Below, piece after piece: positions 7,825-42,956 of a stretch of DNA of 64,000 nt. The DNA is from Lachnospiraceae bacterium (GTDB lineage Bacteria > Bacillota > Clostridia > Lachnospirales > Lachnospiraceae), in NCBI GenBank assembly GCA_045617345.1, contig JAZLIK010000111.1, positions 8,044 through 72,043 of the forward strand, read 5' to 3'. The notes under the pieces are model-generated. The model saw only the letters and a program-made list of their open reading frames with translations, did not search any database and was not told the DNA's origin. The position numbers and the translations under genes were made by a program. Every line of letters starts with the position of its first letter. Position 1 is the first letter of the stretch.

Positions 7825-7833
7825 CTCAGGCAC

Positions 7834-7884
7834 CTCGAACATTTGTTTAGAACAATAATATCATACGAACAGAGGTTTGTCAAA
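7834..7884 (-). promoter_or_regulatory. sigmaA-type promoter with two LexA (Cheo/SOS) box-like sites upstream of the radical SAM operon
   Basis: On the minus strand: TTGACA (7878-7883), a 17-nt spacer, then TATTAT (7855-7860). CGAAC-N4-GTTT sites on the plus strand at 7836-7849 and 7866-7879. Confidence 0.6.
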
Positions 7885-8010
7885 TGTAAATTTCAACAAA
7901 ACTTATTTTCAGCTGCTATTTACAGACTTAACATAACGCATTCATAAGCCCTGCCGGCTACGCAGCGAAGCGGACTGCGAACTTTATTGACTAAACGTTG
8001 GAGCATGTTT

Positions 8011-8568
8011 ATGGTAAAGAAGACAATTCTTGTTGATATGGATGAGGTACTCGACGATATGGACCGTAAATGGGTGAGTTACCTGAATTCACGATACGGG
8101 ACTCATACAAGGTATGAGGATGTGAAGGAATGGGATATGACAAAAGCTTTTCCGGGGCTCAGTCGCGGGCAGGTATACGGTGCAATCCTTGAGGAAGAGC
8201 TTTACAGGAATTTTGAACCGACAGAGGGCGCGGCGGAGGTGCTTCAAAAGCTTATCGGTGAAGGACATGACATTTTTGTCGTGACCAACACGCCCTATCA
8301 GGTGGCAAAGGTTAAGATGGAAGAGGTGCTTTTTAAGTATTATCCGTTTCTTTCGTGGGAGCAGTGTATTTTCACATCAAAAAAGCAGATGATACGGGGA
8401 GACGTTCTGATAGATGACAGCCCCGGAAATCTGGAGGGCGGTGAATATGTGAAGCTCCTGTTTTCGGCTCCCTACAACAGAGATTATGATGCCGAAAAAA
8501 ACGGAATGATTCGTGTAAACAGCTGGGAAGAGATTTATGCGGTAATAGAAGGTCTTTTCAATGACTGA
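8011..8568 (+). CDS. HAD-superfamily 5'(3')-deoxyribonucleotidase-like protein
   Basis: DxDxV motif (LVDMDEVL) and about 185 aa. ATG 8011 lies 7 nt after GGAG. Confidence 0.6.
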   Translation: MVKKTILVDMDEVLDDMDRKWVSYLNSRYGTHTRYEDVKEWDMTKAFPGLSRGQVYGAILEEELYRNFEPTEGAAEVLQKLIGEGHDIFVVTNTPYQVAKVKMEEVLFKYYPFLSWEQCIFTSKKQMIRGDVLIDDSPGNLEGGEYVKLLFSAPYNRDYDAEKNGMIRVNSWEEIYAVIEGLFND

Positions 8569-8662
8569 GCCGGTGGCAGGCGGGCAGAAAAATGAGTTTG
8601 GCCCGGATTTACAAAAAGTCGTTTATTTTTAACCGGTCAGGTTAAGAACGGGGGGGTAAATT

Positions 8663-11104: not shown

Positions 11105-11168
11105 ATACAGTTATCGTTTGTATATGAACAGTGATAACGCGAACGGAAGAACATAGAAAGGCAGAAAA

Positions 11169-12257
11169 ATGGAAAGATATACTGATGTAAAAACTTCATC
11201 GGGAGAGTATCAGGTTGTTATCGGAACAAACCTCAATATCGGTGAACAGTTAAAAAAAATACACCGCGAGTGCCGCGTACTCCTGGTAAGTGATGACACG
11301 GTGTTTGCTCTTTACGGCGAAGATACGGTAAAATCACTTGAAGACAGCGGATTTACCGTGGATACGTTTGTATTCACGCACGGAGAGCAGAGCAAAAATA
11401 TTAATACAATGAATGATATTCTGGAATATGCGGGTAGCTGCCATCTGACACGAACGGATATGATGGCTGCTCTCGGGGGAGGCGTAGTGGGAGATATTAC
11501 CGGTTTCTGTTCGGCAGTATATCTCAGAGGAATCGATTTTGTTCAGATACCGACAACGGTACTGGCTGCGGTAGATTCGTCTGTCGGGGGCAAGACCGCG
11601 ATAGATCTGAAGGCGGGCAAAAATCTTGCGGGTGCGTTTCATCAGCCGGTAGGCGTATTCCTTGACGTGAACCGTTTTAACAGTCTTCCCGATGACATTT
11701 TTTCCGAAGGACTTGCCGAAGCCATAAAAGCCGGGATGATACAGGACAGTGAGCTTTTTGAAATTTTTGAAAAGGCTGATTCCACGGAAACAGGCAGACG
11801 TTTCGGACTTGATATGATGGATATCTGTGCCAGATGTATTGAAATAAAGGCGAAGGTAGTTCAGATTGATGAGTTTGATACCGGTCTGAGAAGAATCCTG
11901 AATTTCGGACATACACCGGCACATGCCATAGAAATACTGAGCGGACTGAAGATATCGCACGGAAAAGCAGTGGCTGTCGGCATGGTTATTATGACAAAAA
12001 CGAGTGAAAGACTCGGCAAAATACCGACAGGAAGTACGGAACGTCTGATAAAGGTGCTCAACAAATTCGGACTGCCGTCTGTCTGTGACTACAATGCCGA
12101 GGAAATGGCGGAAATCGGAGCCGTTGATAAGAAAAGGACCGGAAAAACCATGGGAATCATTCTGCTTGAGAAAATCGGACAGGCATATGTGGAAACAATA
12201 CCCGCTGACAGACTGAGCGAATATTTCGATACAACATTATTCACTAACCGTGATTAA
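11169..12257 (+). CDS. aroB: 3-dehydroquinate synthase
   Basis: 362 aa with GGGVVGDITGF, DSSVGGKTAIDL and NFGHTPAHAIE motifs. Confidence 0.9.
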   Translation: MERYTDVKTSSGEYQVVIGTNLNIGEQLKKIHRECRVLLVSDDTVFALYGEDTVKSLEDSGFTVDTFVFTHGEQSKNINTMNDILEYAGSCHLTRTDMMAALGGGVVGDITGFCSAVYLRGIDFVQIPTTVLAAVDSSVGGKTAIDLKAGKNLAGAFHQPVGVFLDVNRFNSLPDDIFSEGLAEAIKAGMIQDSELFEIFEKADSTETGRRFGLDMMDICARCIEIKAKVVQIDEFDTGLRRILNFGHTPAHAIEILSGLKISHGKAVAVGMVIMTKTSERLGKIPTGSTERLIKVLNKFGLPSVCDYNAEEMAEIGAVDKKRTGKTMGIILLEKIGQAYVETIPADRLSEYFDTTLFTNRD

Positions 12258-12358
12258 TAATTATACAGCGGCAATACTGTCTGAGAGCGATTGATAATTA
12301 TACAGCAGCAATACTGTCTGCGATTAATGGATTTACTGCAACATTACTATCTGACTGC
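12252..12358. repeat. tandem array, roughly 35-bp unit x 3, with the first unit containing the aroB stop
   Basis: GATTAATAATTATACAGCGGCAATACTGTCTG / GATTGATAATTATACAGCAGCAATACTGTCTG / GATTAATGGATTTACTGCAACATTACTATCTG. Confidence 0.85.
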
Positions 12359-12372
12359 GAGGGGAAAAAGCA

Positions 12373-13224
12373 ATGATGAGCGAATACGGACTGATAGGTG
12401 AAAAGCTGGGACACAGCTTTTCGAAGGAACTTCATCGCGAATTCGGTAATGACGGATACGAGCTGATGGAGATACCGAAGGATGAAATAGACGGTTATTT
12501 TGAAAAAGCCTGTTTCAAAGGGATAAATGTGACCATACCGTACAAACAGACGGCCATGAGATACTGCAGCACCGACAGTACGGCTGCTGAAATCGGGGCA
12601 GTGAACACGATGGTGAACCGCGAGGGTACCGTTTACGGATACAATACCGATTTTCTCGGCTTTGAATATATGCTTGGACGTGCGGAAATATCACTGAAAG
12701 GCAAAAAAATCGTTATTCTCGGAAGCGGCGGGACATCAAAGACCGCAAGGTTTGTCTGTAAAAGAGCCGGAGCGGCCGAGATTGTGGTTTTGTCACGAAA
12801 TGCAGACAAAGAGCAGATGAATTCCGATAACGATAAATGCATTCGTTTCGCTGCTTATGGACAGACGGACGAGTATACGGATGCTGACATTATCATAAAT
12901 ACAACGCCTGTCGGAATGTTTCCCAAAATCGATGAATGTCCTGTTGACATAGCCTTGTTTCCTCATCTGGAGGGCGTGGCGGATGTTATATATAATCCCC
13001 GGATTACAAGGCTGCTGAAGGCTGCATCGGAGAGAAATATCAAAAATACGGGAGGACTGCCGATGCTTGTTGCACAGGGCTGGTATGCAAATCTTCTTTT
13101 CAGGGGTGAGCCGGCGGAAAAACTGATGAAGCTTCAGCCCGCAAACGAAACGAAGGACAGCTTTATTACTGTACCTGAGATAGAACGTGTTATTGACGTG
13201 ATACAGGAAGCGCACCGTTTCTGA
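12373..13224 (+). CDS. aroE: shikimate dehydrogenase
   Basis: SFSKELH, NVTIPYK, NTDFLGF and GSGGTSK motifs. Confidence 0.85.
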   Translation: MMSEYGLIGEKLGHSFSKELHREFGNDGYELMEIPKDEIDGYFEKACFKGINVTIPYKQTAMRYCSTDSTAAEIGAVNTMVNREGTVYGYNTDFLGFEYMLGRAEISLKGKKIVILGSGGTSKTARFVCKRAGAAEIVVLSRNADKEQMNSDNDKCIRFAAYGQTDEYTDADIIINTTPVGMFPKIDECPVDIALFPHLEGVADVIYNPRITRLLKAASERNIKNTGGLPMLVAQGWYANLLFRGEPAEKLMKLQPANETKDSFITVPEIERVIDVIQEAHRF

Positions 13225-13309
13225 AGACTGGAGGATTTTATGTAAAAAGGCGATGAGGATACAGCACATTGCCTTGTGAAGCGCACCGTTTCTGAAGACT
13301 GGAGGATTT
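13207..13309 (+). repeat. 32-bp perfect direct repeat (13207-13238 and 13278-13309)
   Basis: GAAGCGCACCGTTTCTGAAGACTGGAGGATTT occurs twice. Copy 1 holds the aroE stop; copy 2 supplies the RBS of the next gene. Confidence 0.9.
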
Positions 13310-13714
13310 ATGGGAGAAGAAATATTCAGAAAAAAAAGTATTGAAAGAATTAACTCACCGGAGAGCCTGAATGATTATGTCAAGGTGGCCAACCCCGGTG
13401 TGTGGATACTATTTGTCGCGGTTATCATACTTCTTGTGGGAGTCGGTGTTTGGGGAATATTCGGAAGACTTGAGACAAAGCTTGAAACCGGGATTTCGGT
13501 AACGGAAGGTATAGGAGTCTGTACGCTGAGTGCGGAAGACTGCGAGAATGTTGAGGCGAACCAGACTGTGAGAATCGGAGACACAGAGGGTAAGGTAGTG
13601 TTTGCGGACAGGAAGGAAGGTATAGTCCGGGTTCAGATTGATGTGCCGGACGGCGAATACGGGGCACAGATAATTATCGAGAGCATCAGTCCCTTTTCAT
13701 TTATAACGAACTGA
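13310..13714 (+). CDS. short HlyD/NHLP-type bacteriocin secretion adaptor-like membrane protein
   Basis: N-terminus FRKKSIERINSPESLNDY followed by one TM helix, resembling the start of NHLP-system HlyD proteins. Only 134 aa. Sits directly upstream of the two exporter ABC genes. Confidence 0.5.
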   Translation: MGEEIFRKKSIERINSPESLNDYVKVANPGVWILFVAVIILLVGVGVWGIFGRLETKLETGISVTEGIGVCTLSAEDCENVEANQTVRIGDTEGKVVFADRKEGIVRVQIDVPDGEYGAQIIIESISPFSFITN

Positions 13715-13726
13715 GGTGTAGCATTT

Positions 13727-15901
13727 ATGCATAATAAAGTAAAGAGTCCCATAAAAAACGGTGTGGCAAAGGTTCCGGTCATAATGCAGCTTGATGCACT
13801 GGAATGCGGCGCGGCCTGCCTGACGATGGTACTGGCGTATTACAATAAATGGATACCGTTGGAGCAGGTCAGGTCCGACTGCGGAGTATCACGTGACGGT
13901 TCAAACGCAAAAAATATGGTAAAGGCAGCCAGACACTACGGACTGAAGGCTCAGGGCTACAGATATGAACCGGAAAACCTCAGGCGCAAGGGCAGCTTCC
14001 CCTGCGTTATCCACTGGAATTTTAATCATTTTGTGGTATTGAAAGGTTTTAGAGGGAATAAAGCCTATATTAACGATCCTGCCCGCGGGAACTGTACTGT
14101 ATCCATGGAGGAATTTGATAAGTGCTTTACCGGGATATGTATCATGTTTGCACCCGGGGAAAGCTTTATTCCGTCCGGAAAGCCTGTCAGTATGATGTCA
14201 TTCGTGGTCAGGCGCCTGAAGGGAACAGGGACAGCTGTGGCATTTACGGTAATAACGGCTGTTATTATGACTATTATGGAGCTGTTTAACTTCTCTTTTT
14301 CAAGAGTTTTTGTTGACAGACTGCTGACCCGGAGAAATCCGGAATGGCTGAGCGGCTTCCTTGTACTGCTGATTGCCTTCAATGCTGTTCGTATACTGAT
14401 GTCCGGAATTCAGGCGGTATATTGTCTTCGGATAAACGGAAAGATGGCTGCGGTAGGAAATACGACATATATGTGGAAGGTACTCAAAATGCCGATGGGG
14501 TTCTTTTCACAGCGAATGTCCGGAGATATACAGGGACGACAGGGTGACAACGCATCTATAGCGGGAACGCTGATAGACACATTTTCACCGCTTGTACTGG
14601 ACTCTGTCATGATTGTGGTTTATCTGATAATAATGCTCAGATACAGTCTGATACTTACCGTGGTCGGCCTGGCATCCTTATCAGTGAATGCATTTGTATC
14701 ACGGTATATTTCGAAAAAAAGAATAAATGTAACCCGTGTTTCAATGCGTGACAGTGCAAAGCTGAGTTCTGCAACCGTATCGGGAATTGAGATGGTGGAG
14801 ACCATAAAGGCATCGGGAGCTGAAAACGGTTTCTTTGCCAGATGGTCGGGCTATCAGGCCAGCGTAAACACACAGGAAGTGCGTTTCATGAAGCTGAACA
14901 GATATCTCGGAATGATTCCCCAGTTTGTTTCGACACTTGCAAACGATGCGGTTCTGGTTCTCGGTGTTTATCTGGTAATGAAGGGCGAGTTTACCGTTGG
15001 AATGATCATGGCCTTCCAGGGGTTCCTTGCTTCCTTTATGAATCCTGTCGGAAAACTGATAGCCGCGGGGCAGACGATACAGGAAATGCGTACCAGAATG
15101 GAGAGGATAGATGATGTAATGGAGTATCCGGAGGACGACGTTTTTGCTCCGGATGATGAAAATGCTGAGGTCGGAGGCAAGCTTTCGGGCAAAATAGAGC
15201 TTAAAAATGTTACTTTTGGCTATTCTCCGCTGGCTGAACCTTTTATAAAGGATTTCAGCATGACGCTTACTCCCGGGAAAACCGTAGCGATCGTCGGTTC
15301 TTCGGGGTGTGGAAAATCCACAATGTCAAAGCTGGTTTCGGGCCTGTACAAACCGTGGCAGGGAGAAATACTGTTTGACGGGAAAACCATGAAGGAGATT
15401 CCTGCCGGCGTATTTCACGGCTCGCTTGCGGTTGTGGATCAGGATATTATTCTGTTTGAGGATACAATAGCCAACAATATTAAAATGTGGGATGAGACAA
15501 TAGAGGATTTTGAGATGATTCTTGCGGCGCGTGATGCGCAGCTTCATGAGGACATTATGCAGAGACCCGACGGTTACAACCATAAAATAACGGAGGGCGG
15601 GAAGGATTTCTCGGGCGGACAGCGTCAGAGAATGGAGATAGCACGCGTATTGGCTCAGGATCCGACAATTATTATTTTAGACGAGGCAACCAGTGCACTT
15701 GATGCAAAGACGGAATATGAGGTTGTGAAGGCTATCCGTGACAGAGGAATCACCTGTATAGTGGTGGCACACAGACTTTCTACCATACGCTCGGCGGATG
15801 AAATAATAGTCATGAAAAACGGAGAAATAAATGACAGAGGTACACACAAATCGCTTATGAATACAAGCGCATTGTATAAAGAGCTTGTTTCGGCAGAGTA
15901 G
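13727..15901 (+). CDS. bacteriocin-export ABC transporter with C39 peptidase, permease and ATPase domains (NHLP-type)
   Basis: C39 motif QLDALECGAACLTMV, a 6-TM region, Walker A GSSGCGKST, signature FSGGQRQR, Walker B IIILDEATS. Confidence 0.85.
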   Translation: MHNKVKSPIKNGVAKVPVIMQLDALECGAACLTMVLAYYNKWIPLEQVRSDCGVSRDGSNAKNMVKAARHYGLKAQGYRYEPENLRRKGSFPCVIHWNFNHFVVLKGFRGNKAYINDPARGNCTVSMEEFDKCFTGICIMFAPGESFIPSGKPVSMMSFVVRRLKGTGTAVAFTVITAVIMTIMELFNFSFSRVFVDRLLTRRNPEWLSGFLVLLIAFNAVRILMSGIQAVYCLRINGKMAAVGNTTYMWKVLKMPMGFFSQRMSGDIQGRQGDNASIAGTLIDTFSPLVLDSVMIVVYLIIMLRYSLILTVVGLASLSVNAFVSRYISKKRINVTRVSMRDSAKLSSATVSGIEMVETIKASGAENGFFARWSGYQASVNTQEVRFMKLNRYLGMIPQFVSTLANDAVLVLGVYLVMKGEFTVGMIMAFQGFLASFMNPVGKLIAAGQTIQEMRTRMERIDDVMEYPEDDVFAPDDENAEVGGKLSGKIELKNVTFGYSPLAEPFIKDFSMTLTPGKTVAIVGSSGCGKSTMSKLVSGLYKPWQGEILFDGKTMKEIPAGVFHGSLAVVDQDIILFEDTIANNIKMWDETIEDFEMILAARDAQLHEDIMQRPDGYNHKITEGGKDFSGGQRQRMEIARVLAQDPTIIILDEATSALDAKTEYEVVKAIRDRGITCIVVAHRLSTIRSADEIIVMKNGEINDRGTHKSLMNTSALYKELVSAE

Positions 15902-15910
15902 GGGGCACAT

Positions 15911-18106
15911 ATGAGCTGGTTCGATGAACAGCTGCAGACGCGGCTGAAAAAGGATAATGAGGGCTTCTCTGATGCGCTTGATTCTGTAGCGGCTGCGGTA
16001 ATGGGGAAGCGGCTGAGCGAAGCTCTTTCGTCGGAGTCGGTGGCACAGTCGGCTCTTGAAGAGATACTCAGATATTATCACATAAAAATGAAGTCGGATG
16101 AAATTCCGAAGAATGTTACATCGATAGATGAACAGATTGAGTACAGAATCCGTCCGTTCGGCATCATGAGAAGAAATGTTGTGCTTGAAAAGGGCTGGTA
16201 TCACAACGCGGTCGGAGCAATGCTGGGCACCCTGAAGGAGGACGGCAGGGCAGTGGCACTTATACCGGGAAAAATGTCAGGATATTTTATGATAGATTTT
16301 ATGACCGGCAAAAAAACGAAGCTGAACAGAAAAAACGCGAAGCTGCTGGATGCTGAGGCAACGGCATTTTACAAGCCTCTTCCTATGAAATCGCTGAAAA
16401 TCAAAGATTTGCTTATATATATGGGCAGTCTTTTAAATACCTCGGATATAATTATGTATGTGGGAGTGACGCTTATAGTGACACTTCTGGGTCTTTTATC
16501 TCCCATGTTTACAAAATGGCTGTTCAGCAATGTTCTGGAGTCGGGAAGCTATACAATGCTTGCAGCCCTGACGGTATTTATGATATGTTTTACGATTTGC
16601 AGACTGCTGATAAGTACATTTCAGACGCTGATTAATGCCCGTATGGGAATCAAACAGAATATAGCGGTTCAGGCTGCTGTAATGAGCAGGATTATCAGTC
16701 TTCCCGCGTCTTTTTTCAAGGAGTATTCATCAGGTGAGCTGACCCAGAGAGCCATGTATGTGCAGTCACTCTGTTCAATGATATTTGATTCACTGACATC
16801 AGTCGGTTTTACGTCATTGTTTTCATTTGTTTACATCGGTCAGATTTTTGTGTTTGCGCCGTCACTTGTATTGCCTTCGCTGATTATCACGCTTTTGACG
16901 GTGGGTTTTTCGATAATTCTTATGCTGGCGAGGATGAAGATATCCGAAAAGAGAATGCTTTTGTCATCAAAGACAAGCGGATTTACCTATTCTACCATTA
17001 CGGGAATTCAGAAAATCAAGCTGGCCGGAGCAGAAAAAAGGATGTTTTCACGCTGGGCCGCGCAGTATTCGAAGGAAGCGGCGATTACGTACAACCCGCC
17101 CGTATTTCTGACTCTGGGTTCGACGATTTCACTTGCTTTTTCGCTTATAGGAACGATAGTGATATATTATCTTGCCGTAAGCACCGGAGTTGCGGTTTCG
17201 GATTACTATGCGTTTAATACGGCTTACGGTATGGTATCTTCGGCATTTGCGGCATTTACGTCAATTACGGCAACTTTGGCCAACATCAGACCTTCTCTGA
17301 ATATGGCACGTCCGATACTGGAGGCAGAGCCGGAGGTTGCTGAAGGAAGACTGACGGTAACGGAGCTAAAGGGAGCTGTTGAGCTTTCTGATATTTCGTT
17401 CCGTTATGACGAAAAAATGCCTTGGGTAATAGACAAACTGTCACTGAAAATTAAGCCCGGCGAATATCTGGCCATAGTCGGTTCGACAGGGTGTGGAAAA
17501 TCAACGCTTATGCGTCTCCTGCTCGGCTTTGAAAAGCCACAGAAGGGGGTAATCTATTATGACAGGAAGGATATGACAAGACTTGACCTCAAATCACTCC
17601 GTCGTAATATCGGAACCGTCATGCAGGACGGAAAGCTTTTTATGGGAGATATTTTTTCAAACATAATCATATCGGCACCGCAGCTGACTCTTGAGGACGC
17701 ATGGAAGGCAGCTGAGCTTGCATCGCTCGACGATGATATCAGGCAGATGCCGATGGGAATGAATACTCTGATTTCGGAAGGACAGGGCGGTATTTCGGGC
17801 GGTCAGAAACAGCGAATGATGATAGCCCGTGCGCTTGCGCCGAAGCCGAAGATTCTCATGTTTGACGAAGCTACCAGTGCACTGGACAATGTGACACAAA
17901 AAAAGGTGTCGGAAGCTATCGACACCCTTAAATGTACACGAATAGTTATTGCACACCGTCTCTCGACTATCCGGCATGCCGACAGGATTATTTGTCTTGA
18001 GGGCGGTAAGATAATCGAGGAAGGAACCTATGAGGATTTGATAAATAAAAAAGGTTATTTCGCATCATTGGTTGAACGCCAGAGACTTGACGTAGAGGTG
18101 GATTGA
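15911..18106 (+). CDS. bacteriocin-export ABC transporter permease/ATPase, second subunit without a peptidase cysteine
   Basis: Non-peptidase N-terminal domain, a TM region, GSTGCGKST, ISGGQKQR, ILMFDEATS. Tightly follows the previous gene. Confidence 0.8.
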   Translation: MSWFDEQLQTRLKKDNEGFSDALDSVAAAVMGKRLSEALSSESVAQSALEEILRYYHIKMKSDEIPKNVTSIDEQIEYRIRPFGIMRRNVVLEKGWYHNAVGAMLGTLKEDGRAVALIPGKMSGYFMIDFMTGKKTKLNRKNAKLLDAEATAFYKPLPMKSLKIKDLLIYMGSLLNTSDIIMYVGVTLIVTLLGLLSPMFTKWLFSNVLESGSYTMLAALTVFMICFTICRLLISTFQTLINARMGIKQNIAVQAAVMSRIISLPASFFKEYSSGELTQRAMYVQSLCSMIFDSLTSVGFTSLFSFVYIGQIFVFAPSLVLPSLIITLLTVGFSIILMLARMKISEKRMLLSSKTSGFTYSTITGIQKIKLAGAEKRMFSRWAAQYSKEAAITYNPPVFLTLGSTISLAFSLIGTIVIYYLAVSTGVAVSDYYAFNTAYGMVSSAFAAFTSITATLANIRPSLNMARPILEAEPEVAEGRLTVTELKGAVELSDISFRYDEKMPWVIDKLSLKIKPGEYLAIVGSTGCGKSTLMRLLLGFEKPQKGVIYYDRKDMTRLDLKSLRRNIGTVMQDGKLFMGDIFSNIIISAPQLTLEDAWKAAELASLDDDIRQMPMGMNTLISEGQGGISGGQKQRMMIARALAPKPKILMFDEATSALDNVTQKKVSEAIDTLKCTRIVIAHRLSTIRHADRIICLEGGKIIEEGTYEDLINKKGYFASLVERQRLDVEVD

Positions 18107-19630: not shown

Positions 19631-20413
19631 TTATTTCCGGCTGATTTTAAGATTATGCTCCTGTTTCTTTTTTTCAATAAACCAGTAAGTATATTTTATC
19701 GGCGGGAAGTGTCCCATCAGCAGCTGCGAAATTTTAAACAGAAAGCAGGGATAAATCTGTTTCTTGCCTTTTTCTATGCCGGAAACGACCTTGCGTGCGA
19801 CAACGGAGGCCTCCTGAACCGGGAAGGGTCTCATGTATCCTTTACCGCCACCGCCGCCGGCGTTAAAGAAATTGGTGTTTGTAGCTACGGGATACACACA
19901 GGTAAACTGCAGATTTTTGGGCTTTTCGAGGCGGACAGCTTCTTCAAATCCGGCAAGTGCATATTTGGATGCCGTGTAAAGTGAGTAACCGGGCATTCCC
20001 AATTTTCCGATGGCACTGATTGTGGAAACAAAGGTGCCGCTACGGCCGTTAAGATGTTTTATATAACGCACATAAGAATATATGGGAGAATACGTATTTG
20101 TACGGAACAACTTATCGATTCTGTTCCAATTGACATAATTGTAGTTTTCGATATATGCGAAGCCAGCGTTTGCGTAAAAAATATCGATTTTATCGAAAAG
20201 CTTTTCGGACCTTCTGAAAACGGCCTCAACTCCCTCGGCAGTGCTTATGTCGCATTGCATTGGAATAATTTTTTTGGACATGCCCTCGAGAGAGGAAATG
20301 TCAAGTGCAACGGCAAGAATTCTGTTCCCGTGTCCTTTTTTCAAAAGCTTTAATACCTCAAGTCCGATACCGGAGCCGGCACCGGTTATTACTATGTTTT
20401 TGTTTTCTATCAT
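19631..20413 (-). CDS. SDR-family oxidoreductase
   Basis: ITGAGSGIG and YTASKYA motifs. ATG 20413 follows GAGGTG. Confidence 0.8.
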   Translation of the reverse strand: MIENKNIVITGAGSGIGLEVLKLLKKGHGNRILAVALDISSLEGMSKKIIPMQCDISTAEGVEAVFRRSEKLFDKIDIFYANAGFAYIENYNYVNWNRIDKLFRTNTYSPIYSYVRYIKHLNGRSGTFVSTISAIGKLGMPGYSLYTASKYALAGFEEAVRLEKPKNLQFTCVYPVATNTNFFNAGGGGGKGYMRPFPVQEASVVARKVVSGIEKGKKQIYPCFLFKISQLLMGHFPPIKYTYWFIEKKKQEHNLKISRK

Positions 20414-20460
20414 AATAAACACCTCACAATATTTTTTATGTTCGGATAATCCTGTATGAT

Positions 20461-20645
20461 GTTATTATTCACAGTCTGTCCAAAACGTATTCTTCAGCCC
20501 TGTCTGCAGCACAGTCATTCGCTGCTTCGCAAATGAAAGCTTACTTCATGTGCTTTGCCGGGCTTCCGCAGTCGGATGATAATGCTCACAAGCTTGAAGC
20601 AGGCTTCAGGCTTGCGTTCGTTATCATCCGACTGCGAATAGCAAC
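20461..20645 (+). mobile_element. MITE-like element, full-length copy (185 bp)
   Basis: Bounded by GTTATTATTCACAG ... CTGCGAATAGCAAC. Internal palindrome CAGTCGGATGATAATG..CGTTATCATCCGACTG. Colinear with 29279..29463. Confidence 0.7.
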
Positions 20646-20897
20646 ATTATTTTATCATATAATGTCTGCTTCGTCAAAAGTACTGATGCCTATTGAGACA
20701 CACATTTATTCGCACTATGTGTTCTTAAAACGCAAATATCATTCAAAATCTGCTGATTTTCTTCGAAAAAAAGGTTGGGTCTTCACTTTTTGATTCGAAA
20801 AGTTCATTTTTTCAGCAGGACTGCCGGAAAATAACATACTTTTGATGATTGTATTTTATTTGTGCATCGGCTAATATATCATGAGATATGAAAATGT

Positions 20898-20926
20898 TTG
20901 GCTATTGTCAACGAATGTGATATACT
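20898..20926 (+). promoter_or_regulatory. candidate promoter for the hypA-like cassette
   Basis: TTGGCT, a 17-nt spacer, then TATACT. This leaves a roughly 200-nt leader before ATG 21140. Confidence 0.35.
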
Positions 20927-21139
20927 AATAGTGGGGCAAGGGTTGCTGTTTCCAAACAAGTCGGGTGATAATTGCTTGTTGATGAGTGACATTATTATGC
21001 ATTTCGGGGATGGCAGTTTTGTTGAAAAAAAGAATCTGTCAGGATACAGCGGAGACGATTCACAAAGCAAATACAGATTGAAGATTCTCCTAAGAAATGG
21101 ATTGGCGGAAGTTCGATATACTGAGGTTTGAGATTATAT

Positions 21140-21382
21140 ATGCATGAGCTTGGTGTCTTATTACAGATTGTAAAAACCGTAGATAGAATTGCAAATGAAG
21201 AGCGAATAGATAAAGTACGATATATTGCTGTTGAAGTGGGGGAGGAATCAGGATTTGTTCCAATGTATTTAGGGAAACTGTTTCCTATAGCGGTTGATTC
21301 ATTTCCAATGCTTAAGAAAACACAGCTGAAGATAACTACAGTGCCGGGTGAAGGGCTAATAATCAAGGAAATTGGGTATTAA
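21140..21382 (+). CDS. HypA-like nickel metallochaperone lacking the zinc-finger domain
   Basis: Starts MHE (the HypA Ni-binding N-terminus). 80 aa with no cysteine at all. Ends LIIKEIGY, like the last HypA strand. Confidence 0.6.
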   Translation: MHELGVLLQIVKTVDRIANEERIDKVRYIAVEVGEESGFVPMYLGKLFPIAVDSFPMLKKTQLKITTVPGEGLIIKEIGY

Positions 21383-21390
21383 TTGAAAGG

Positions 21391-22419
21391 ATGCTGTTTT
21401 CCATGAATGATGCAAAGAAAAACTCAGGTAATATTGATGAAAAGGGGAATGTCCTATATCTGGACGAGGAACGATTAAAACGAAAAAAGACAGGATTTTT
21501 GCCATATAAGAATAAAAAGTCCGGGCTTGGAATCAGTAACTGGCTGTATGAGCATTTAATATATGTCAACAAAAAGCGTTTTCCAATTGTACACAAGGCT
21601 TATCGTATTCTCGTTAAATCATTTTATATAATCAAAAAGGGCGGATGGAAGTCACGTCTTTATAAACGCATTATAAGAATGTATCCTGATGAGAAGCACC
21701 CGACATCTACAATTGTTTTGCCTGTTAATATTGATGTTTCGGATAAAGCGGAAAAAACAGTTATTCCATTTGAACTAATTAAAGAATCCTTGAAAAAAGT
21801 TACATACATTGTTGGCGCAGATGTATGTTTATGCCGCGAAAGTAATGGCTGTAAGGATTATCCTCATGACCTGGGGTGTTTATTTTTAGGAGAAGCGGGA
21901 AAGGTGATTGTAAAGCACGGTTTGGGGCGAGAGCTTACTTATGAAGAAGCGTGTGCCAGAATAGATGAAGCTGCAGCCTTAGGACTTATGGGACAAGCCG
22001 TGTGGGTTGAATTCGAGCAGCTTGTATGGGGAATAAGAAATGACCGGATGGATCAAATGCTGGAAATATGTTTTTGCTGTCCATGCTGTTGTCTTGCCAT
22101 GAGAATGGCCAGAAATTCAACAGATAAGGAGAAAAAGCGCTTTCATCCTTCCGGATGGACGGCTGTTGCGGATTTGACAAAATGTATTGGATGCGGAAAA
22201 TGTACAAACAGCCGGATTGAACGGGATAAGTGCCCGATGGATGCCATTAGCCGCGGAGAAGACGGAAAAGTAAGGATAAATCAGGAATTATGTGTTGGAT
22301 GCGGAATATGTAAGGTCAGGTGTCCTGTGGATGCAATAAGTGTCAAACAGACAATGCCGATGCGAAAAGATATTCAGGAATACTTTTTAAAAGATTATAA
22401 TATTGATTTGAAACTCTAA
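21391..22419 (+). CDS. Cys-rich 4Fe-4S dicluster domain protein of unknown function
   Basis: Two ferredoxin motifs (CIGCGKC..CP, CVGCGICKVRCP), plus CLCRESNGC and CFCCPCCC clusters. Alternative start at 21403. Confidence 0.65.
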   Translation: MLFSMNDAKKNSGNIDEKGNVLYLDEERLKRKKTGFLPYKNKKSGLGISNWLYEHLIYVNKKRFPIVHKAYRILVKSFYIIKKGGWKSRLYKRIIRMYPDEKHPTSTIVLPVNIDVSDKAEKTVIPFELIKESLKKVTYIVGADVCLCRESNGCKDYPHDLGCLFLGEAGKVIVKHGLGRELTYEEACARIDEAAALGLMGQAVWVEFEQLVWGIRNDRMDQMLEICFCCPCCCLAMRMARNSTDKEKKRFHPSGWTAVADLTKCIGCGKCTNSRIERDKCPMDAISRGEDGKVRINQELCVGCGICKVRCPVDAISVKQTMPMRKDIQEYFLKDYNIDLKL

Positions 22420-22457
22420 GAAAATATATTCTAAAATGGGGGTAATAGATCAAACAA

Positions 22458-23168
22458 ATGGATGATGTTAGAATTATTGAAGTAAAACGAAGTGTTTTTG
22501 ATGATAATGATAAAGATGCTTGTTGCCTCAGACAGCAGTTAAAAGAAGAGAAAACGTTTCTATTAAATGTGATGTCATCACCGGGAGCCGGAAAGACAAT
22601 GATGTTAAAACGGCTTGCGGAAAAACTTGCAGGGAAGGTTAAATTTGCTGTAATGGAGGCTGATATTGATTCTGATGCGGATGCAAGAGCGATGCGCCAA
22701 ATCGGAGTTGATGCCATACAGATTCACACCGGTGGAATGTGTCATTTGGACGCGGATATGACAAGGCAGGGGCTTACGGAGCTTGGAAGCAGTAAGTATG
22801 ATCTTGTTATTTTGGAAAATGTGGGTAATTTAGTGTGCCCTGCGGAATTTGATACCGGTGCTGTTAAGAATATGACAATTCTCTCAGTACCTGAGGGAGA
22901 TGACAAGCCGCTGAAGTATCCATTGATGTATGAAATATGCAATTTGCTTGTTATCAGCAAAATGGATGTTATTGACAGCTTTGATTTTAATCCGGAGAAA
23001 GCAGTAAGCTATGCCAGGATGCGCAACCCGGAAATCAAAGTGATTTGTATTTCCGCTAAAACAGGTAAAGGAATCGATGAACTGGCGGATTGGATAATAG
23101 AAAATGTTAACAGTTGGAATATGGAAGCCGGTTTCCCGGGTCAGCCTCAAGCAAACGTTATCGAGTGA
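22458..23168 (+). CDS. hypB: hydrogenase/urease-type nickel incorporation GTPase HypB
   Basis: P-loop SSPGAGKT, ENVGNLVCPAEFD and ISKMD motifs. The last roughly 20 codons lie in a dispersed repeat. Confidence 0.8.
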   Translation: MDDVRIIEVKRSVFDDNDKDACCLRQQLKEEKTFLLNVMSSPGAGKTMMLKRLAEKLAGKVKFAVMEADIDSDADARAMRQIGVDAIQIHTGGMCHLDADMTRQGLTELGSSKYDLVILENVGNLVCPAEFDTGAVKNMTILSVPEGDDKPLKYPLMYEICNLLVISKMDVIDSFDFNPEKAVSYARMRNPEIKVICISAKTGKGIDELADWIIENVNSWNMEAGFPGQPQANVIE

Positions 23169-23336
23169 CTTTTGTCACGAGATTATGTGTTTTGTCCGGA
23201 TTTCATAGTCAGACGATAATGTTCATAAATCCTGAAGCAGGCTTCGGCGCGGAGCTCATTATCATCCTACTGTGGATAGAAGCGTTACATTAACATAAAA
23301 AAGTATTTGCGAGGAAAAGTTACTGTGAACGGTAAC
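23110..23336. repeat. mosaic of dispersed repeat modules overlapping the hypB 3' end
   Basis: GCAAACGTTATCGAGTGACTTTTGTCACGAGAT matches 429..470. Also CAGACGATAATG..CATTATCATCCTACTG and a terminal CTGTGAACGGTAAC. Confidence 0.6.
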
Positions 23337-23347
23337 TGAGAAAGAAA

Positions 23348-24052
23348 ATGAGTGATTTTATCAGATTTGAGAAAGTATGCAAGACCTATACCATGGGTGA
23401 AGTAAAGATTGAAGCCCTAAAGGATGCGGGATTTACAATTCAGAAGGGCGAAATATGCATTATAGTAGGCCCCTCGGGTGCGGGAAAAACCACACTTTTG
23501 AATATACTGGGAGGTATGGACAGCCTGACTTCGGGAAGGATTTTCCTTGAGGACAGGGAAATATCGTCGTATTCCAGGAAAGAGCTGACTTCGTTCAGAA
23601 GATATGATGTCGGGTTTGTGTTTCAGTTTTACAATCTGATTCCGAATCTGACAGCACTGGAAAATGTAGAGCTGGCATCCCAGATATGCAGGGAACCGCT
23701 TGATGCACATGAAGTTATGAAGAGAGTCGGACTTGAAGAAAGAGAAAAGAACTTTCCTGCACAGCTTTCCGGCGGAGAACAGCAGCGTGTGGCCATTGCC
23801 AGAGCACTGGCAAAGAATCCCAAGCTTTTGCTCTGTGACGAACCTACCGGTGCGCTTGATTATGTGACCGGCAAACAGATTTTAAAGCTTCTTCAGGATA
23901 CGGCGCGACAGACGGGAATGACGGTTATTATCATTACCCATAACAGTGCGCTTACAGATATGGCTGACAGAATTATCAGAGTAAAGAGCGGCACGGTGGT
24001 CGAAGAGAAGATAAATCCGGCTCCCGTACCGGTAGAGGATATTTCGTGGTAG
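23348..24052 (+). CDS. ABC transporter ATP-binding protein (MacB/LolD-like)
   Basis: [36 protein letters not shown]. Confidence 0.9.
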
Positions 24053-24158
24053 CTTTGCTTGTTTGACGTTACTGTTCATTATCATATGACTGTGAGCTTT
24101 GACCGGACTGTGAACAGTAACTGCTTGACTCTTTGAAGGTTTGTGAGGATGATTTGAA

Positions 24159-27014
24159 ATGATTTTCAAAAATATGCTACGTCAGATAAGGCATTCACTT
24201 GGGCGTTATCTGGCAATATTTGCAATAGTGGCGCTTGGTGTCGGTTTTTTTGCGGGGCTGAAGGTTACCAGGGATGCTATGGTAAAAACAGGCGAGAAGT
24301 ATTTTGAAGAACTGAAGCTGTTTGACTTAAGGCTTGTCAGTACGCTTGGATTTACGGAAGATGATGTGGATAAATTTGACAGTCTTACATTTGTGTCCGA
24401 ATGCATCGGATCTGTCAGTGCGGATGTACTGATTCTGCAGGAAAACGGAGCAGACGGAGTACTCCACGTCCATTCGCTGTCAGATTCGATGAATGTGCCG
24501 GAAATTCTGTTCGGAAGGCTTCCGGAGGCCGGTGATGAGTGTGTACTTGACAACAAGAACTACGACGAGGGAATGCTTGGAAAGTATATTGTACTTTCTG
24601 ACAATAACGAGGCGTCAGCCGGTGATACATTTGTTTATGACAGGTATAAAGTGGTCGGAGTGGTAAACTCACCCTATTATATCAATTTTGAAAGAGGTGC
24701 AAGCAGTCTTGGCTCGGTTTCGGGTTTTATGTATATTCCTGAGAGTGGGTTTAAAACTGATTATTATACGGAGATTTTCCTGCGTTTTTCGGAAAGGCAT
24801 GAGATTTATTCCGAAGAATACGAAAATTATACAGCCGAATGTGAACAGCAGATTACTCCGATGCTGGAGAAATGTGCGGCGGACAGATATGACAGCCTGA
24901 AATCAGATGCACTCGACCGTATACACAGTGCCGAAGCGGAGCTTGCGGACGGCAGAAAAGAATATGAAAGCAAAAAGGCAGACACCGAAAAAAAGCTGCT
25001 CGATGCTGAAGCACAAATAGCTGAGGGTGAAGAGCGGATTAACGTTGCGAAGGAGAATCTGGATAACGGGACTGAGCAGCTGAATGATGCGTACAGCCGT
25101 TTTGAAGCTTCAAAAAACTACATGGATACGCAGATGGCCGAACAGCAGGCAGCAGCTCTTGAAGGAATGAAAACAGAGCTTGATACGGCAGCGGAGCAGC
25201 TTGCCGAATCGGAGCTGCAGCTGGAGACGGCGCGTGCAGAGCTTGAAGAGAACAGGAAAACTGCAGAGGAAGAGTTTCTGAAGGCCGAGAGCGAGCTTAA
25301 TGATGCGCAGAGTAAGATTGATGAAGCATATATTCAGCTCGAAGATCTTGCTGAACCATCAACATTTGTTCTGGGAAGAAATACAAATATCGGATATGCC
25401 TGCCTTGAAAATGATACAGGAATAGTGAGCGGTATATCAAAGGTATTTCCGTTATTCTTTTTTATCGTGGCATCACTTGTCTGTGTTACTACAATGACCA
25501 GAATGGTTGATGAACAGCGTGTTCAGAACGGAGTACTGAAGGCACTTGGTTACAGTGATACTGTTATTGTGGGACAATATCTTTTTTATGCAGGCTCGGC
25601 GTCGGTTTTGGGGTGCATTCTCGGTTTTCTGATTGGTTCGCGCTATATGCCGATGGTATTGTGGAAGATTTACCACATCATGTATTCAATCGAAAGACCG
25701 ATAGTATATCTGCTTGACTGGAGTCTGTTTGCGTTCTGTGCAATTCTGTATCTGATAGCAACTCTCGGTGCCACATGGATGGCGGCTTCCGGAGATCTTA
25801 AGGAAGCGGCGGCGGAGCTTATCAGACCCAAATCTCCTGCGGCCGGAAAGAGGGTTCTTTTGGAACGGATAGGCTTTATCTGGAAGCGAATCAAATTCCT
25901 GCATAAAGTATCAATCCGCAATATACTCAGATATAAAAAGCGAATGTTTATGATGATAATCGGGGTAGGAGGCTGTACGGCACTGCTTTTGACCGGATTC
26001 GGTATCAGGGATTCAATCCAGCCGATACTGGACTATCAGTACAATGAGATACATTTATATGATATAGCGGTTATGTATCTTAATGAAGTGTCACCTGAGG
26101 AACAGAGAAATATAACTGAGGCTCATTCCGGCGATGCGAAAGGAATCAGGTTTATTCATTCGGAAACAATGGATCTTGTGACGAATGATTCCTCGGATTC
26201 CGTAACACTGGTTGCGGCGGACAACATTGAAAAGGAGTATATCAGTCTTCATAAGGGGGATGAGATATACAGCTGGCCCGGAAAGGGTGAAGTTATCATT
26301 GACTACAGACTTGCAAAGGACAATGATATTGAAATCGGTGACACAATAGAGTTCCGTGATTCAGATTTTAATTCGATAAAAGTAAAGGTTTCCGGTATAT
26401 TTGACAATTACATTTATGATTTTGCATACATCAGCTCAGATACCTATGAGGAACAGATGGGGAAAGCTCCCGTACAGGACGGTGCGTATGTACTTTTGAA
26501 GGACGGAACAGATGCTGCTGAGGCAGTAGCCGTGTTTTTAAAAGATAAAAACTGCGGAAGTGTCAGCATTATCGAAAATCAGCTGGCGAATGTCGGAAAT
26601 ATGCTTTCATCCCTTGATTATGTGGTGCTGATAGTTCTGGTGTGTGCCGGAGCACTTGCTTTCATAGTAATATATAATCTGACCAATATCAGCATAAATG
26701 AACGAATCCGTGAGATAGCAACGATAAAGGTACTTGGTTTCTATGAGAGCGAATCTGCCGCATATGTGTTCAGGGAAAATCTGGTGCTTTCACTGATTAG
26801 TGCAATAGTCGGGCTTCCCATGGGGGTAGCTCTCCACCGATACGTCATGGCGCAGATTAAGATTAAGGGTATGTATTTCGGACACAGGATACTTCCCGCG
26901 AGCTTTGTCTGGGCTCTGGTTCTGACTATGGTATTTGCCGTAATTGTTGATTTCTTTATGTATTTCAGACTGAAAAAAATAAATATGGCAGAATCCCTGA
27001 AGGCAATCGAGTAA
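24159..27014 (+). CDS. FtsX-family ABC transporter permease with two FtsX modules and a coiled-coil extracytoplasmic region
   Basis: 951 aa with an N-terminal TM, a long Glu/Ala/Leu-rich coiled-coil segment, and two 3-4 TM blocks. Follows the ATPase gene. Confidence 0.8.
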   Translation: MIFKNMLRQIRHSLGRYLAIFAIVALGVGFFAGLKVTRDAMVKTGEKYFEELKLFDLRLVSTLGFTEDDVDKFDSLTFVSECIGSVSADVLILQENGADGVLHVHSLSDSMNVPEILFGRLPEAGDECVLDNKNYDEGMLGKYIVLSDNNEASAGDTFVYDRYKVVGVVNSPYYINFERGASSLGSVSGFMYIPESGFKTDYYTEIFLRFSERHEIYSEEYENYTAECEQQITPMLEKCAADRYDSLKSDALDRIHSAEAELADGRKEYESKKADTEKKLLDAEAQIAEGEERINVAKENLDNGTEQLNDAYSRFEASKNYMDTQMAEQQAAALEGMKTELDTAAEQLAESELQLETARAELEENRKTAEEEFLKAESELNDAQSKIDEAYIQLEDLAEPSTFVLGRNTNIGYACLENDTGIVSGISKVFPLFFFIVASLVCVTTMTRMVDEQRVQNGVLKALGYSDTVIVGQYLFYAGSASVLGCILGFLIGSRYMPMVLWKIYHIMYSIERPIVYLLDWSLFAFCAILYLIATLGATWMAASGDLKEAAAELIRPKSPAAGKRVLLERIGFIWKRIKFLHKVSIRNILRYKKRMFMMIIGVGGCTALLLTGFGIRDSIQPILDYQYNEIHLYDIAVMYLNEVSPEEQRNITEAHSGDAKGIRFIHSETMDLVTNDSSDSVTLVAADNIEKEYISLHKGDEIYSWPGKGEVIIDYRLAKDNDIEIGDTIEFRDSDFNSIKVKVSGIFDNYIYDFAYISSDTYEEQMGKAPVQDGAYVLLKDGTDAAEAVAVFLKDKNCGSVSIIENQLANVGNMLSSLDYVVLIVLVCAGALAFIVIYNLTNISINERIREIATIKVLGFYESESAAYVFRENLVLSLISAIVGLPMGVALHRYVMAQIKIKGMYFGHRILPASFVWALVLTMVFAVIVDFFMYFRLKKINMAESLKAIE

Positions 27015-36802: not shown

Positions 36803-36805
36803 CCT

Positions 36806-36955
36806 CGTACCGGACGGGAGGACGGGAGGCATAAGTTCGATTAATGTCCGAAACGAAAACGGGAAAACGTACCGGACGGGAGACCGGGAGGCATAAGTTC
36901 GATTAATGTCCGAAACGAAAACGGGAAAACGTACCGGATGGGAGGACGGGAGGCT
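36806..36955. repeat. tandem array, 62-bp unit x about 2.4, starting 4 nt after the moxR stop
   Basis: CGTACCGGACGGGAGGACGGGAGGCATAAGTTCGATTAATGTCCGAAACGAAAACGGGAAAA, repeated. Confidence 0.85.
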
Positions 36956-42952: not shown

Positions 42953-42956
42953 AATG

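Follow-up and report, generated by a model that had tools for sequence, protein, structure and literature searches.

The DNA analysed here is a 64-kb stretch (64,000 nucleotides, hereafter the window) of a contig of a Lachnospiraceae bacterium, and this work concerns a cassette of three genes at positions 21140-23168 of it. The cassette consists of three co-directional, closely spaced open reading frames (ORFs) on the + strand (Table 1), which code for a short HypA of 80 amino acids (aa), named here mini-HypA, for a Cys-rich iron-sulfur (Fe-S) protein, and for the GTPase HypB, a nickel chaperone. An initial annotation, made from the letters alone, had proposed such a trio at this place, and all three ORFs were found at these coordinates and in this orientation. 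In the public gene call the Fe-S gene is four codons shorter, beginning at the ATG at 21403 and coding for 338 aa; this ATG is likely to be the true start, since it agrees better with the ribosome-binding site GAAAGGA at 21384-21390.

Table 1. Features of the three-gene cassette and of its borders (positions in the window).
Feature	Position	Strand	Description
mini-HypA (ORF 1)	21140..21382	+	80 aa; HypA nickel-binding domain alone
Cys-rich Fe-S protein, "mini-IsrA" (ORF 2)	21391..22419	+	342 aa
HypB GTPase nickel chaperone (ORF 3)	22458..23168	+	236 aa; TIGR00073 match
Cys-rich core domain, proposed Ni/Fe-S site	21703..22155	+	aa ~105-255 of the Fe-S protein
First cysteine block, C146-L-C148-R...C154...C163	21826..21879	+	CxC motif 1 and two more invariant Cys
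Second cysteine block, C227-F-C229-C230-P-C232-C233-C234	22069..22092	+	CxC motif 2 and four more Cys
2x[4Fe-4S] ferredoxin module	22165..22341	+	C265/268/271/281 and C301/304/307/311
Candidate sigma-70-type promoter, TTGGCT-17-TATACT with TG	20898..20926	+	~210 nt upstream of hypA; weak, from a consensus scan
Upstream copy of the palindromic repeat	20540..20662	.	hairpin arms 20567-20600 / 20603-20636
Downstream copy of the palindromic repeat	23180..23300	.	hypB / ABC-ATPase spacer

The Fe-S protein is made up of an N-terminal helical extension, a Cys-rich alpha/beta core, and a C-terminal ferredoxin module with two [4Fe-4S] sites. The two ferredoxin motifs and the two unusual clusters that had been initially annotated in it, CLCRESNGC (C146-C154) and CFCCPCCC (C227-C234), are all present in ORF 2. 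The profile and Foldseek searches proposed along with that annotation as a means of placing the protein matched the ferredoxin module alone. Pfam and NCBIfam models hit the protein solely at residues 259-317 (Fer4, PF00037, 44 bits; Fer4_21, PF14697, 35.8 bits), and its first ~255 residues had no match in either collection. Within the module, the first motif has a 9-residue spacer ahead of its fourth Cys, and Foldseek matched the module to the PFOR delta subunit and to clostridial ferredoxins with a root-mean-square deviation of 1.3-1.5 A; it is presumed to be the wire by which electrons enter the protein. Beyond this module, Foldseek of the predicted model against the PDB returned nothing (template modelling score on the query of at most 0.2), and a profile search of PDB sequences also matched the ferredoxin module only. 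Since neither search reached the Cys-rich core, this domain is, as judged from its predicted fold, one without a solved structural relative.

Searches for homologues of the Fe-S protein revealed a large family. Its close family comprised 1278 hits at E<=0.001, the top 120 of which were all at least 62% identical over near full length, and 124 alignment columns were invariant among 24 close homologues. An exhaustive search with residues 1-258 yielded 327 representatives at 50% clustering, none of them with a Pfam family for the core; many of these matches were proteins of 270-300 aa that aligned at residues ~105-245 and also ended in a ferredoxin module. Among 80 diverse members, C146, C148, R149, C154, C163, C227, and C229 were invariant, while C230, C232, C233, and C234 were conserved in at least 90%, and the spacing from one CxC motif to the other was constant across the superfamily, at about 78-81 residues. 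The AlphaFold model built from these 80 diverse sequences reached a predicted local distance difference test (pLDDT) score of 90.6 and a predicted template modelling (pTM) score of 0.89, and that built from the 24 close homologues was poor (pLDDT 58). Altogether, the family, which is common among the gut Clostridia of humans and ruminants, extended over 162 GTDB species genomes and more than 1000 protein clusters at 90% identity.

The mini-HypA begins with MHELG and contains no cysteine in its 80 residues. It matched the Pfam HypA profile (PF01155) with 45 bits (cut-off 28.9), at profile positions 1-70 of 112 only, and remained under the cut-off of the NCBIfam HypA equivalog (TIGR00100; 27.4 versus 88.1 bits); in a single-sequence search of the PDB no HypA was among the matches, and recognition was by the Pfam profile only. 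Comparison with a full-length HypA of 118 aa from a related locus (L076; Pfam positions 1-110 of 112) revealed a gap of exactly 33 residues that corresponds to the CxxC...CxxC module, with the last strand, IKEIGY, retained. The two CxxC motifs of the HypA structural zinc site are therefore missing, as initially annotated for a HypA that starts with MHE and from which the zinc module is cleanly absent. Orthologues encoded upstream of the Fe-S gene were of exactly 80 aa in 66 of 71 cases and free of Cys in 47 of 71; all 71 started with MHE, or with V-HE where the start codon was GTG, and they shared 39-83% identity across families, including a conserved C-terminal strand. The short HypA is a conserved family with a clean excision of the zinc module, not a truncation. 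Loss of the zinc domain is a lineage-wide trait and a new one, a literature search having retrieved nothing on a zinc-less HypA or on a hypA/Fe-S/hypB trio, and the cassette represents a natural experiment in which a whole lineage works without the HypA zinc domain.

HypB scored 236.7 bits against TIGR00073 (cut-off 121.2) and has an intact P-loop (SSPGAGKT, residues 40-47) and an intact ENVGNLVCP motif, which agrees with its initial description as canonical. Its top PDB match was the HypB of Helicobacter pylori (4LPS; 1.5e-44), with whose nickel/zinc site in the G-domain C95-H96...C127 aligned. The N-terminal high-affinity site of the Escherichia coli type, CxxCGC, is absent, and the pair C22-C23 near the N-terminus is unconserved in homologues; as a HypB without an N-terminal metal site, it is of the same type as those of H. 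pylori and of the isr operon described below. The last ~15 residues of the protein (MEAGFPGQPQANVIE, aa 222-236, window 23121-23165) are unique to this genome, homologues aligning to residues 1-221. The native stop codon of hypB may have been displaced, with the extension running toward the downstream repeat copy.

The gene neighbourhoods of the Fe-S homologues were analysed in a species-representative scan (one genome per GTDB species), in which 162 genomes contained a relative of the Fe-S protein, 80 loci were fetched, and flanks were analysed for 82 loci. All fetched loci belonged to metagenome-assembled genomes (MAGs) of gut or rumen Clostridia (Lachnospiraceae, Oscillospiraceae, Anaerovoracaceae, Mogibacterium, Ruminiclostridium, and others). 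Counting adjacency at those loci with enough sequence on the relevant side, hypA was found directly upstream of the Fe-S gene in 69 of 76 loci and hypB directly downstream in 62 of 73, and ORF-to-ORF gaps within the trio were short or overlapping. Both genes flanked the Fe-S gene in 57 of 68 fully evaluable loci, which answers the question of co-occurrence that the initial annotation had put to this kind of analysis. Neither gene was present at four loci, three of which carried the most distant homologues (47-50% identity). The reciprocal search, in which metagenome contigs were scanned from the mini-HypA side with eight query sequences and the pattern MHELG[VI]Lx[HQK][IA], found the Fe-S gene directly downstream in 21 of 21 evaluable hits, in a sample biased to close relatives. 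Moreover, on one metagenomic contig (L124, 1200-2900) the Fe-S protein and HypB are encoded as a single in-frame ORF of 566 aa (P0088), preceded by an 80-aa hypA; this fusion was seen on a single 3.5-kb contig only, and could result from a sequencing error that removed a stop codon. The hypA-FeS-hypB arrangement is far beyond chance.

The closest relative, a Lachnospiraceae MAG with ~80% protein identity (L001), had the cassette alone in common with the window, its flanks being unrelated. When ORFs within +-8 kb were clustered, the sole widespread extra neighbour was a divergently transcribed TetR regulator gene, present at 28 loci from several families. Hydrogenase, hypCDEF, CODH (carbon monoxide dehydrogenase), and urease genes were not recurrent in the +-8 kb flanks of the 82 loci, and no gene for hydrogenase, hypCDEF, urease, CODH, LarA, or a nickel transporter was found among the large ORFs of the window, in accordance with the initial annotation as regards the first four. 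The locus thus contains neither the hypC, D, E, or F genes nor the structural genes that lie near a [NiFe]-hydrogenase maturation locus. The trio is a conserved, self-contained unit with unrelated flanks. The notion of a nickel-delivery module put forward at the outset gains from these data, as a conserved trio outside hydrogenase loci whose mini-HypA occurred only beside the Fe-S gene in the sampled copies.

Other neighbours were considered as candidate clients of HypA and HypB and rejected. Genes for a NifS-like cysteine desulfurase, NifU, and desulfoferrodoxin were found together at 8-9 loci (L008, where they lie at 7461-9506, as well as L011-L014, L017, L022, L024, and L073), in most cases just upstream of the cassette and read from the other strand; L073 apart, these loci are Oscillospiraceae MAGs. 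This block, which could serve for Fe-S supply or reflect plain lineage synteny, was discarded as a client for being limited to these loci and mainly to one Oscillospiraceae lineage, and ABC ATPase, MATE, and PALP enzyme genes were discarded for their sporadic occurrence. At three loci an alpha/beta-hydrolase gene adjoins the Fe-S gene (L002, 7928-8836; L010, 1216-2706; L093, 344-1234), two of them with close homologues that lack hypB and one with a distant relative; such a neighbour might point to an ester or a lactone as the kind of substrate.

A precedent for the Fe-S protein is found in the isoprene-induced isr operon of Acetobacterium wieringae ISORED-2, with the gene order isrA-hypA1-hypB-fdx-hypA2 (Kronen et al., 2023; PMC10134865). 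IsrA is a 901-aa, GltD/Nfn-like oxidoreductase with flavin adenine dinucleotide (FAD) and NAD(P)H modules, and a putative Ni-dependent isoprene reductase. Its N-domain contains "cluster V," six clustered Cys with two CxC motifs at the end of a predicted substrate tunnel, which was proposed as the nickel site, and the first ~270 aa of a 350-aa "4Fe-4S ferredoxin" of the operon (VUZ27135.1) align to this unannotated IsrA N-terminus (PMC10134865). According to the same study, A. wieringae has no [NiFe]-hydrogenase in its genome, CODH and LarA of Acetobacterium each have their own maturases, and 73% of 988 IsrA homologues are encoded at most five genes from HypA and 56% at most five genes from HypB; no association with HypA/HypB was reported for the ferredoxin-type protein (PMC10134865). 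In the literature as of 2026, IsrA was still a putative nickel enzyme, and our search found no biochemical proof or follow-up.

The Fe-S protein of the window proved to be homologous to this domain of IsrA. BLASTP against an IsrA-type N-domain gave an E value of 2e-8, and an hhalign comparison of a 42-sequence profile of IsrA N-domains with the superfamily profile gave 99.7% (E 8.4e-27) over 183 columns (query 81-288). In this alignment C146, C148, C154, C163, C227, C229, and also C234 fell on conserved IsrA cysteines. The first cysteine block aligned with the CsCR...C...C of IsrA N-domains; at the second block IsrA-type proteins have C-N-C-x4-C, and the four extra conserved Cys of the stand-alone proteins are absent from IsrA. 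Consequently, the feature that marks IsrA-type proteins, an N-terminal Cys-rich domain of ~270 aa with a site of six Cys including two CxC motifs, is present in the 342-aa protein. What it does not contain is the GltD/Nfn-like module (Fer4_20, PF14691, plus Pyr_redox_2, PF07992): its ferredoxin half-motifs are contiguous, and align to residues ~305-330 and ~850-876 of a 912-aa IsrA-type protein from locus L076. Because of the N-domain homology, and because the half-motifs flank that module in IsrA, the Fe-S protein corresponds to an IsrA minus the inserted FAD/NAD(P)H module. The initial annotation had pointed to unusual clusters in the middle protein. Its core has no match in Pfam, NCBIfam, or the PDB; as a type, however, the protein does have a precedent, given the isr-operon ferredoxin-type protein and the homology to the IsrA N-domain.

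Two related loci illustrate the connection. L076 encodes, besides the 912-aa IsrA-type protein (PF14691 and PF07992) and the full-length HypA, a relative of the Fe-S protein. L121 (4453-12301), from a Mogibacterium MAG, contains an isr-type operon with a divergent TetR gene, an IsrA-like protein of 912 aa, a HypA of 114 aa, a 339-aa Fe-S relative, an IsrA-like protein of 897 aa, and a HypA of 123 aa; it lacks HypB, unlike the published Acetobacterium operon. The Fe-S relatives of both loci are ~50% identical to the window protein. Within flanks of +-8-10 kb, an IsrA-type gene was found at one of the 82 loci.

The window cassette and the isr operon therefore share HypA and HypB encoded with a protein of ~340-350 aa that combines a Cys-rich N-domain of ~270 aa with a ferredoxin module, an architecture identical in the window protein and in the VUZ27135.1-like type (as likened by its published description), together with a context free of [NiFe]-hydrogenase and a HypB without an N-terminal metal site. 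They differ in that no IsrA, with its FAD/NAD(P)H module, is encoded in the window cassette or its flanks, in that the isr operon has two HypAs, both with CxxC...CxxC, whereas the cassette has one, which is zinc-less, and in gene order. Likewise, a Fe-S protein next to HypA/HypB is the dominant arrangement in our sample, while no such association appears in Kronen et al. (2023). The protein type and its company with HypA/HypB, already described in the isr operon, are thus not categorically new. What is new is that the stand-alone Fe-S protein, and not IsrA alone, is tightly and reciprocally linked to HypA/HypB, and that a three-gene minimal form without IsrA is widespread.

More distant relatives of the Fe-S protein were found in other company. 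At L086, a 38%-identical relative is followed by full-length HypA and HypB within a CoA-dependent catabolic cluster, which is an independent recurrence of a core-plus-ferredoxin protein with HypA/HypB. That cluster (L086, 1963-8000) contains genes for a CoA ligase, a thiolase, SCP2, two DUF2148 proteins, and a TRAP transporter, and a second copy of core and ferredoxin is fused there to an epimerase/3beta-HSD domain (584 aa); the cluster could represent an anaerobic pathway of the steroid or lipid type, with the same presumed nickel module at work in it. At L078, a 50%-identical relative has a 377-aa FAD protein directly upstream and neither HypA nor HypB. Elsewhere the relatives are paired with a 382-aa FAD/Pyr_redox protein and a divergent TetR gene (P0139, 295 aa; L090/91), a 487-aa amine-oxidase-like FAD protein and again a divergent TetR gene (P0133, 421 aa; L092), a 493-aa FAD_binding_2 protein and an IclR regulator (P0433, 350 aa; L123), or a 725-aa molybdopterin oxidoreductase and a TetR regulator (P0125, 304 aa; L089). 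Finally, the relative at L084 (P0164, 274 aa) is accompanied by a nitroreductase, an ABC transporter, and an acyl-CoA dehydrogenase, without Hyp genes. The flavoprotein and molybdopterin partners of the distant core-plus-ferredoxin proteins have no annotated ferredoxin or core-type module. Since the partner flavoproteins lack these modules, the core protein was read as the working redox subunit, and the distant pairs look like "split IsrA" enzymes.

Taken together, these results led us to read the trio as an operon complete in itself, coding for a Ni-Fe-S reductase that is fed by ferredoxin and for the insertase that supplies its nickel; this is the best-supported reading, although we regard its chances as evenly balanced. 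It is favoured by the reciprocal linkage of the genes, the fusion, the lack of other clients in cis, and the homology to the proposed IsrA nickel domain, and further by the recurrence at L086, the enzyme-like distant relatives, and regulation of the TetR (small-molecule) type. The middle protein would probably be a nickel enzyme of a new kind, akin to the catalytic end of IsrA, itself a putative isoprene reductase. That it might itself be the client had been offered as an option in the initial annotation, and the Fe-S-HypB fusion and the homology of its core to the proposed nickel domain make this likely.

Under the reading of a self-contained nickel reductase, HypB would load nickel in a GTP-dependent manner and hand it to mini-HypA, whose MHE N-terminus would in turn pass it on to the core domain. 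The motifs for nickel and GTP are intact in both proteins (MHE in HypA; the P-loop and the CH...C site in HypB), and the zinc domain seems dispensable for a small client, since mini-HypA has lost it. The Cys-rich core would hold a Ni-containing Fe-S centre with its six invariant Cys (two CxC motifs) and four further conserved Cys. The 2x[4Fe-4S] module would carry electrons to the core from a low-potential donor, such as a ferredoxin, a flavodoxin, or an unlinked flavoprotein, a role that in IsrA would be taken by the inserted FAD/NAD(P)H module. That the core contains nickel, which way the electrons run, and that the protein is a reductase are inferences. The substrate would most likely be a small unsaturated or xenobiotic molecule of the gut, as favoured by the analogy to IsrA and the frequent divergent TetR gene.

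Several known systems offer parallels to this scheme. In the A-cluster of acetyl-CoA synthase, a Cys-x-Cys motif (Cys-Gly-Cys) supplies the N2S2 site of the distal nickel, and a CxC beside a Fe-S site is for this reason a known way of binding nickel. In this A-cluster and in the CODH C-cluster, nickel is joined to or built into a [4Fe-4S] cluster via Cys with the help of dedicated NTPase maturases. The likeness is a chemical analogy only, since no similarity of sequence or fold to the Fe-S protein was detected and the maturases are CooC/AcsF-type ATPases, not HypA/HypB. With the HypA/HypB of [NiFe]-hydrogenase and of H. pylori urease, the cassette proteins share the MHE motif, the nickel-domain signature, the G3E GTPase features, and the CH...C site; they differ by the lack of hypCDEF, hydrogenase, and urease genes, by the zinc-less HypA, and by another client. 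In IcmF, a G3E GTPase of the MeaB type forms one chain with the mutase that it serves. The Fe-S-HypB fusion P0088 would likewise join a G3E chaperone and its client, by analogy only, the families and cofactors being different.

Some points weigh against the interpretation as a nickel reductase. Nickel binding and catalysis are putative for every member of the family, IsrA included. Many distant relatives have no HypA/HypB nearby, and nickel may for that reason not be superfamily-wide; in ~10-15% of the close homologues, too, hypA or hypB is missing from the adjacent position, and the cassette encodes no electron donor or substrate-related gene. In addition, relatives with ~50% identity adjoin full-length IsrA-type enzymes (L076, L121, and similarly the published isr operon), and such a placement fits a role as partner or scaffold at least as well.

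According to this last explanation, the main alternative and one absent from the initial annotation, which we consider rather unlikely, the trio would be a pure maturation cassette. The middle protein, as a paralogue of the IsrA catalytic domain, would act as a scaffold or obligatory partner on which HypA and HypB assemble a Ni-Fe-S centre, and the IsrA-type oxidoreductase that it serves would have its gene at another place in the genome. The relatives that sit between IsrA-type and HypA genes in L076 and L121/L122, as well as the published order isrA-hypA1-hypB-fdx-hypA2, agree with it, and so does the homology to the very part of IsrA in which the special cluster is supposed to lie. The same taxa, Lachnospiraceae, Clostridia, and Limivicinus among them, also have IsrA-type N-domains. 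Furthermore, hyp genes are often encoded apart from their structural genes, and a scaffold that is paralogous to the enzyme it serves is known in NifEN and NifDK, an analogy between different families and cofactors in which a paralogue of the catalytic domain acts as assembly scaffold. However, 81 of the 82 loci have no IsrA-type gene in their flanks of +-8-10 kb, and 28 trio loci carry a divergent TetR gene of their own, which is typical of substrate-induced enzymes. The four additional conserved Cys indicate that the sites are not simple copies of that in IsrA, and in the distant relatives, whose flavoprotein partners have no annotated ferredoxin or core module, the protein cannot be a scaffold for such a module in cis. 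Most IsrA homologues lie near HypA/HypB but without the Fe-S protein, which is therefore not generally needed for IsrA (PMC10134865).

It is improbable that the middle protein is a mere electron-transfer ferredoxin or redox helper, for example one keeping a target cluster reduced during nickel insertion, with HypA and HypB working for a classical nickel enzyme whose genes lie at another place in the genome ([NiFe]-hydrogenase, CODH/acetyl-CoA synthase, urease, or LarA). The 2x[4Fe-4S] module is indeed the only part that matches known families and structures, and distant relatives stand beside unrelated oxidoreductases, such as the molybdopterin enzyme in L089. Nevertheless, the core of ~250 aa is far too conserved for a linker: 124 columns do not vary in the alignment of the 24 close homologues, and in the 80 diverse members seven residues, including six Cys, are still invariant. 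The mini-HypA was solely beside the Fe-S gene in the sampled copies, no hydrogenase, CODH, or urease gene recurred in the flanks of the 82 loci, and a HypA without its zinc domain speaks for a client other than the usual one. Acetobacterium, moreover, has the same protein types without a [NiFe]-hydrogenase, its CODH and LarA having their own maturases.

Even less probable is a module for storage, buffering, or sensing of nickel or another metal, in which the Cys-rich protein would sequester metal in a metallothionein-like manner and HypA/HypB would act as shuttles. Such a function could account for the very high cysteine density (CFCCPCCC) and for a cassette without substrate-related genes, and relatives of HypB and HypA do act in nickel storage and trafficking in Helicobacter. 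Against it, the cysteines occupy fixed positions with constant spacing in a confidently predicted alpha/beta fold, an electron-transfer module is always fused to them, and the core is homologous to an oxidoreductase domain; regulation is by TetR and not by a metal-responsive protein like NikR, and the Rfam search revealed no riboswitch. Decay of a hyp operon, with hypA left as a truncated pseudogene, to which a HypA of 80 instead of about 115 aa and an ABC-ATPase fragment with repeats just upstream might point, is effectively excluded by the conserved length, intact start, conserved C-terminal strand, and 39-83% identity of the orthologues and by the intactness and strong conservation of all three genes in 57 of 68 loci.

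To our knowledge, the nickel enzymes described fall into only about ten kinds, and hydrogenase and, in Helicobacter, urease are the only clients linked to HypA/HypB so far. The 2023 proposal for IsrA hinted at a further client, although a nickel site in a 900-aa protein with multiple cofactors was a guess. In the cassette, a protein of 342 aa is the one candidate client that accompanies the chaperone genes, and the presumed nickel site is narrowed to ~150 residues. We tentatively suggest, while holding it to be somewhat more doubtful than probable, that this ~150-residue core houses an undescribed Ni-Fe-S cofactor and defines a new class of nickel enzymes, widespread in gut and rumen Clostridia, with a presumed reductive action in the gut on unactivated C=C bonds or on other substrates that are hard to reduce (isoprene, dienes, terpenoids, xenobiotics); the trio, with its zinc-free HypA, would be the minimal form of this class. 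If the Fe-S protein is an enzyme, it would stand for an unrecognised, probably inducible reductive activity of the gut microbiota. The system is small, with three genes that can be expressed heterologously, and offers a tractable object for testing the nickel site.

The borders of the cassette were also analysed. The palindromic repeat found on both sides has the core CGCAGTCGGATGATAATG and hairpin arms of ~34 nt, and has eight hits in the window (12342, 20567, 20619, 23257, 24077, 29384, 36962, and 48575), where 0.05 would be expected. The repeats form a family dispersed over intergenic sites and resembling REP (repetitive extragenic palindromic) sequences or MITEs (miniature inverted-repeat transposable elements), and not a bracket specific to the cassette. 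The flanking repeats that had been initially described as MITE copies bracketing the cassette are real, but, dispersed as they are, they provide no evidence of mobility. The downstream copy is possibly the terminator hairpin of the operon, and the family may serve as terminators. The AT-richness noted at first was confirmed in the window, where it is modest (39.2% G+C in the cassette versus 43.6% in the flanks); it is not general, the cassette having the lower G+C content in only 20 of 40 related loci. An origin as a mobile element was discarded, given the dispersed repeat, a G+C dip that is not general, and flanks without a recurrent transposase or integrase.

When the window was searched against Rfam, nothing reached the gathering threshold, and upstream of hypA the stretch 20400-21400 yielded noise alone at E<=10. 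A riboswitch or leader RNA was rejected, because no Rfam family was found there and because the part of the leader conserved in L001 is the 3' fragment of a decayed ABC-transporter ATPase gene. This fragment lies at ~20995-21100 (in an ORF at 20898-21131), just upstream of hypA, and its intact homologue occupies the same position in L001 (8922-9710). Downstream of the cassette, an intact ABC ATPase and an FtsX-type permease are encoded at 23348-27014. The remnant on one side and the intact genes on the other suggest a local rearrangement.

The other large ORFs of the window code for NHLP-type bacteriocin exporters, an aldehyde dehydrogenase, a short-chain dehydrogenase/reductase, MacB/FtsX-type ABC systems, shikimate-pathway enzymes, an agr-like module, and sugar-acid enzymes. 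In the region 8663-18106, a subtilase gene (8663-11104) is followed downstream by two genes for NHLP-family ABC transporters of bacteriocin export, one of which matched TIGR03796 above the cut-off (13727-15901) and the other TIGR03797 just below it (15911-18106); probably, a locus for a bacteriocin or another ribosomally synthesised and post-translationally modified peptide is located nearby. An apparent operon at 35882-40417 encodes a MoxR-type AAA ATPase (35882-36802), an unannotated protein of 388 aa, and a transglutaminase-like protein of 734 aa. The agr-like module is on the - strand (41425-44264) and comprises AgrB (41425-41991), a LytTR response regulator (42185-42952), and a GHKL histidine kinase (42957-44264). 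Finally, a putative redox-active protein of the C_GCAxxG_C_C family (PF09719) is encoded at 57604-58140, adjoining altronate/galactarate dehydratase and mannitol dehydrogenase-family genes.

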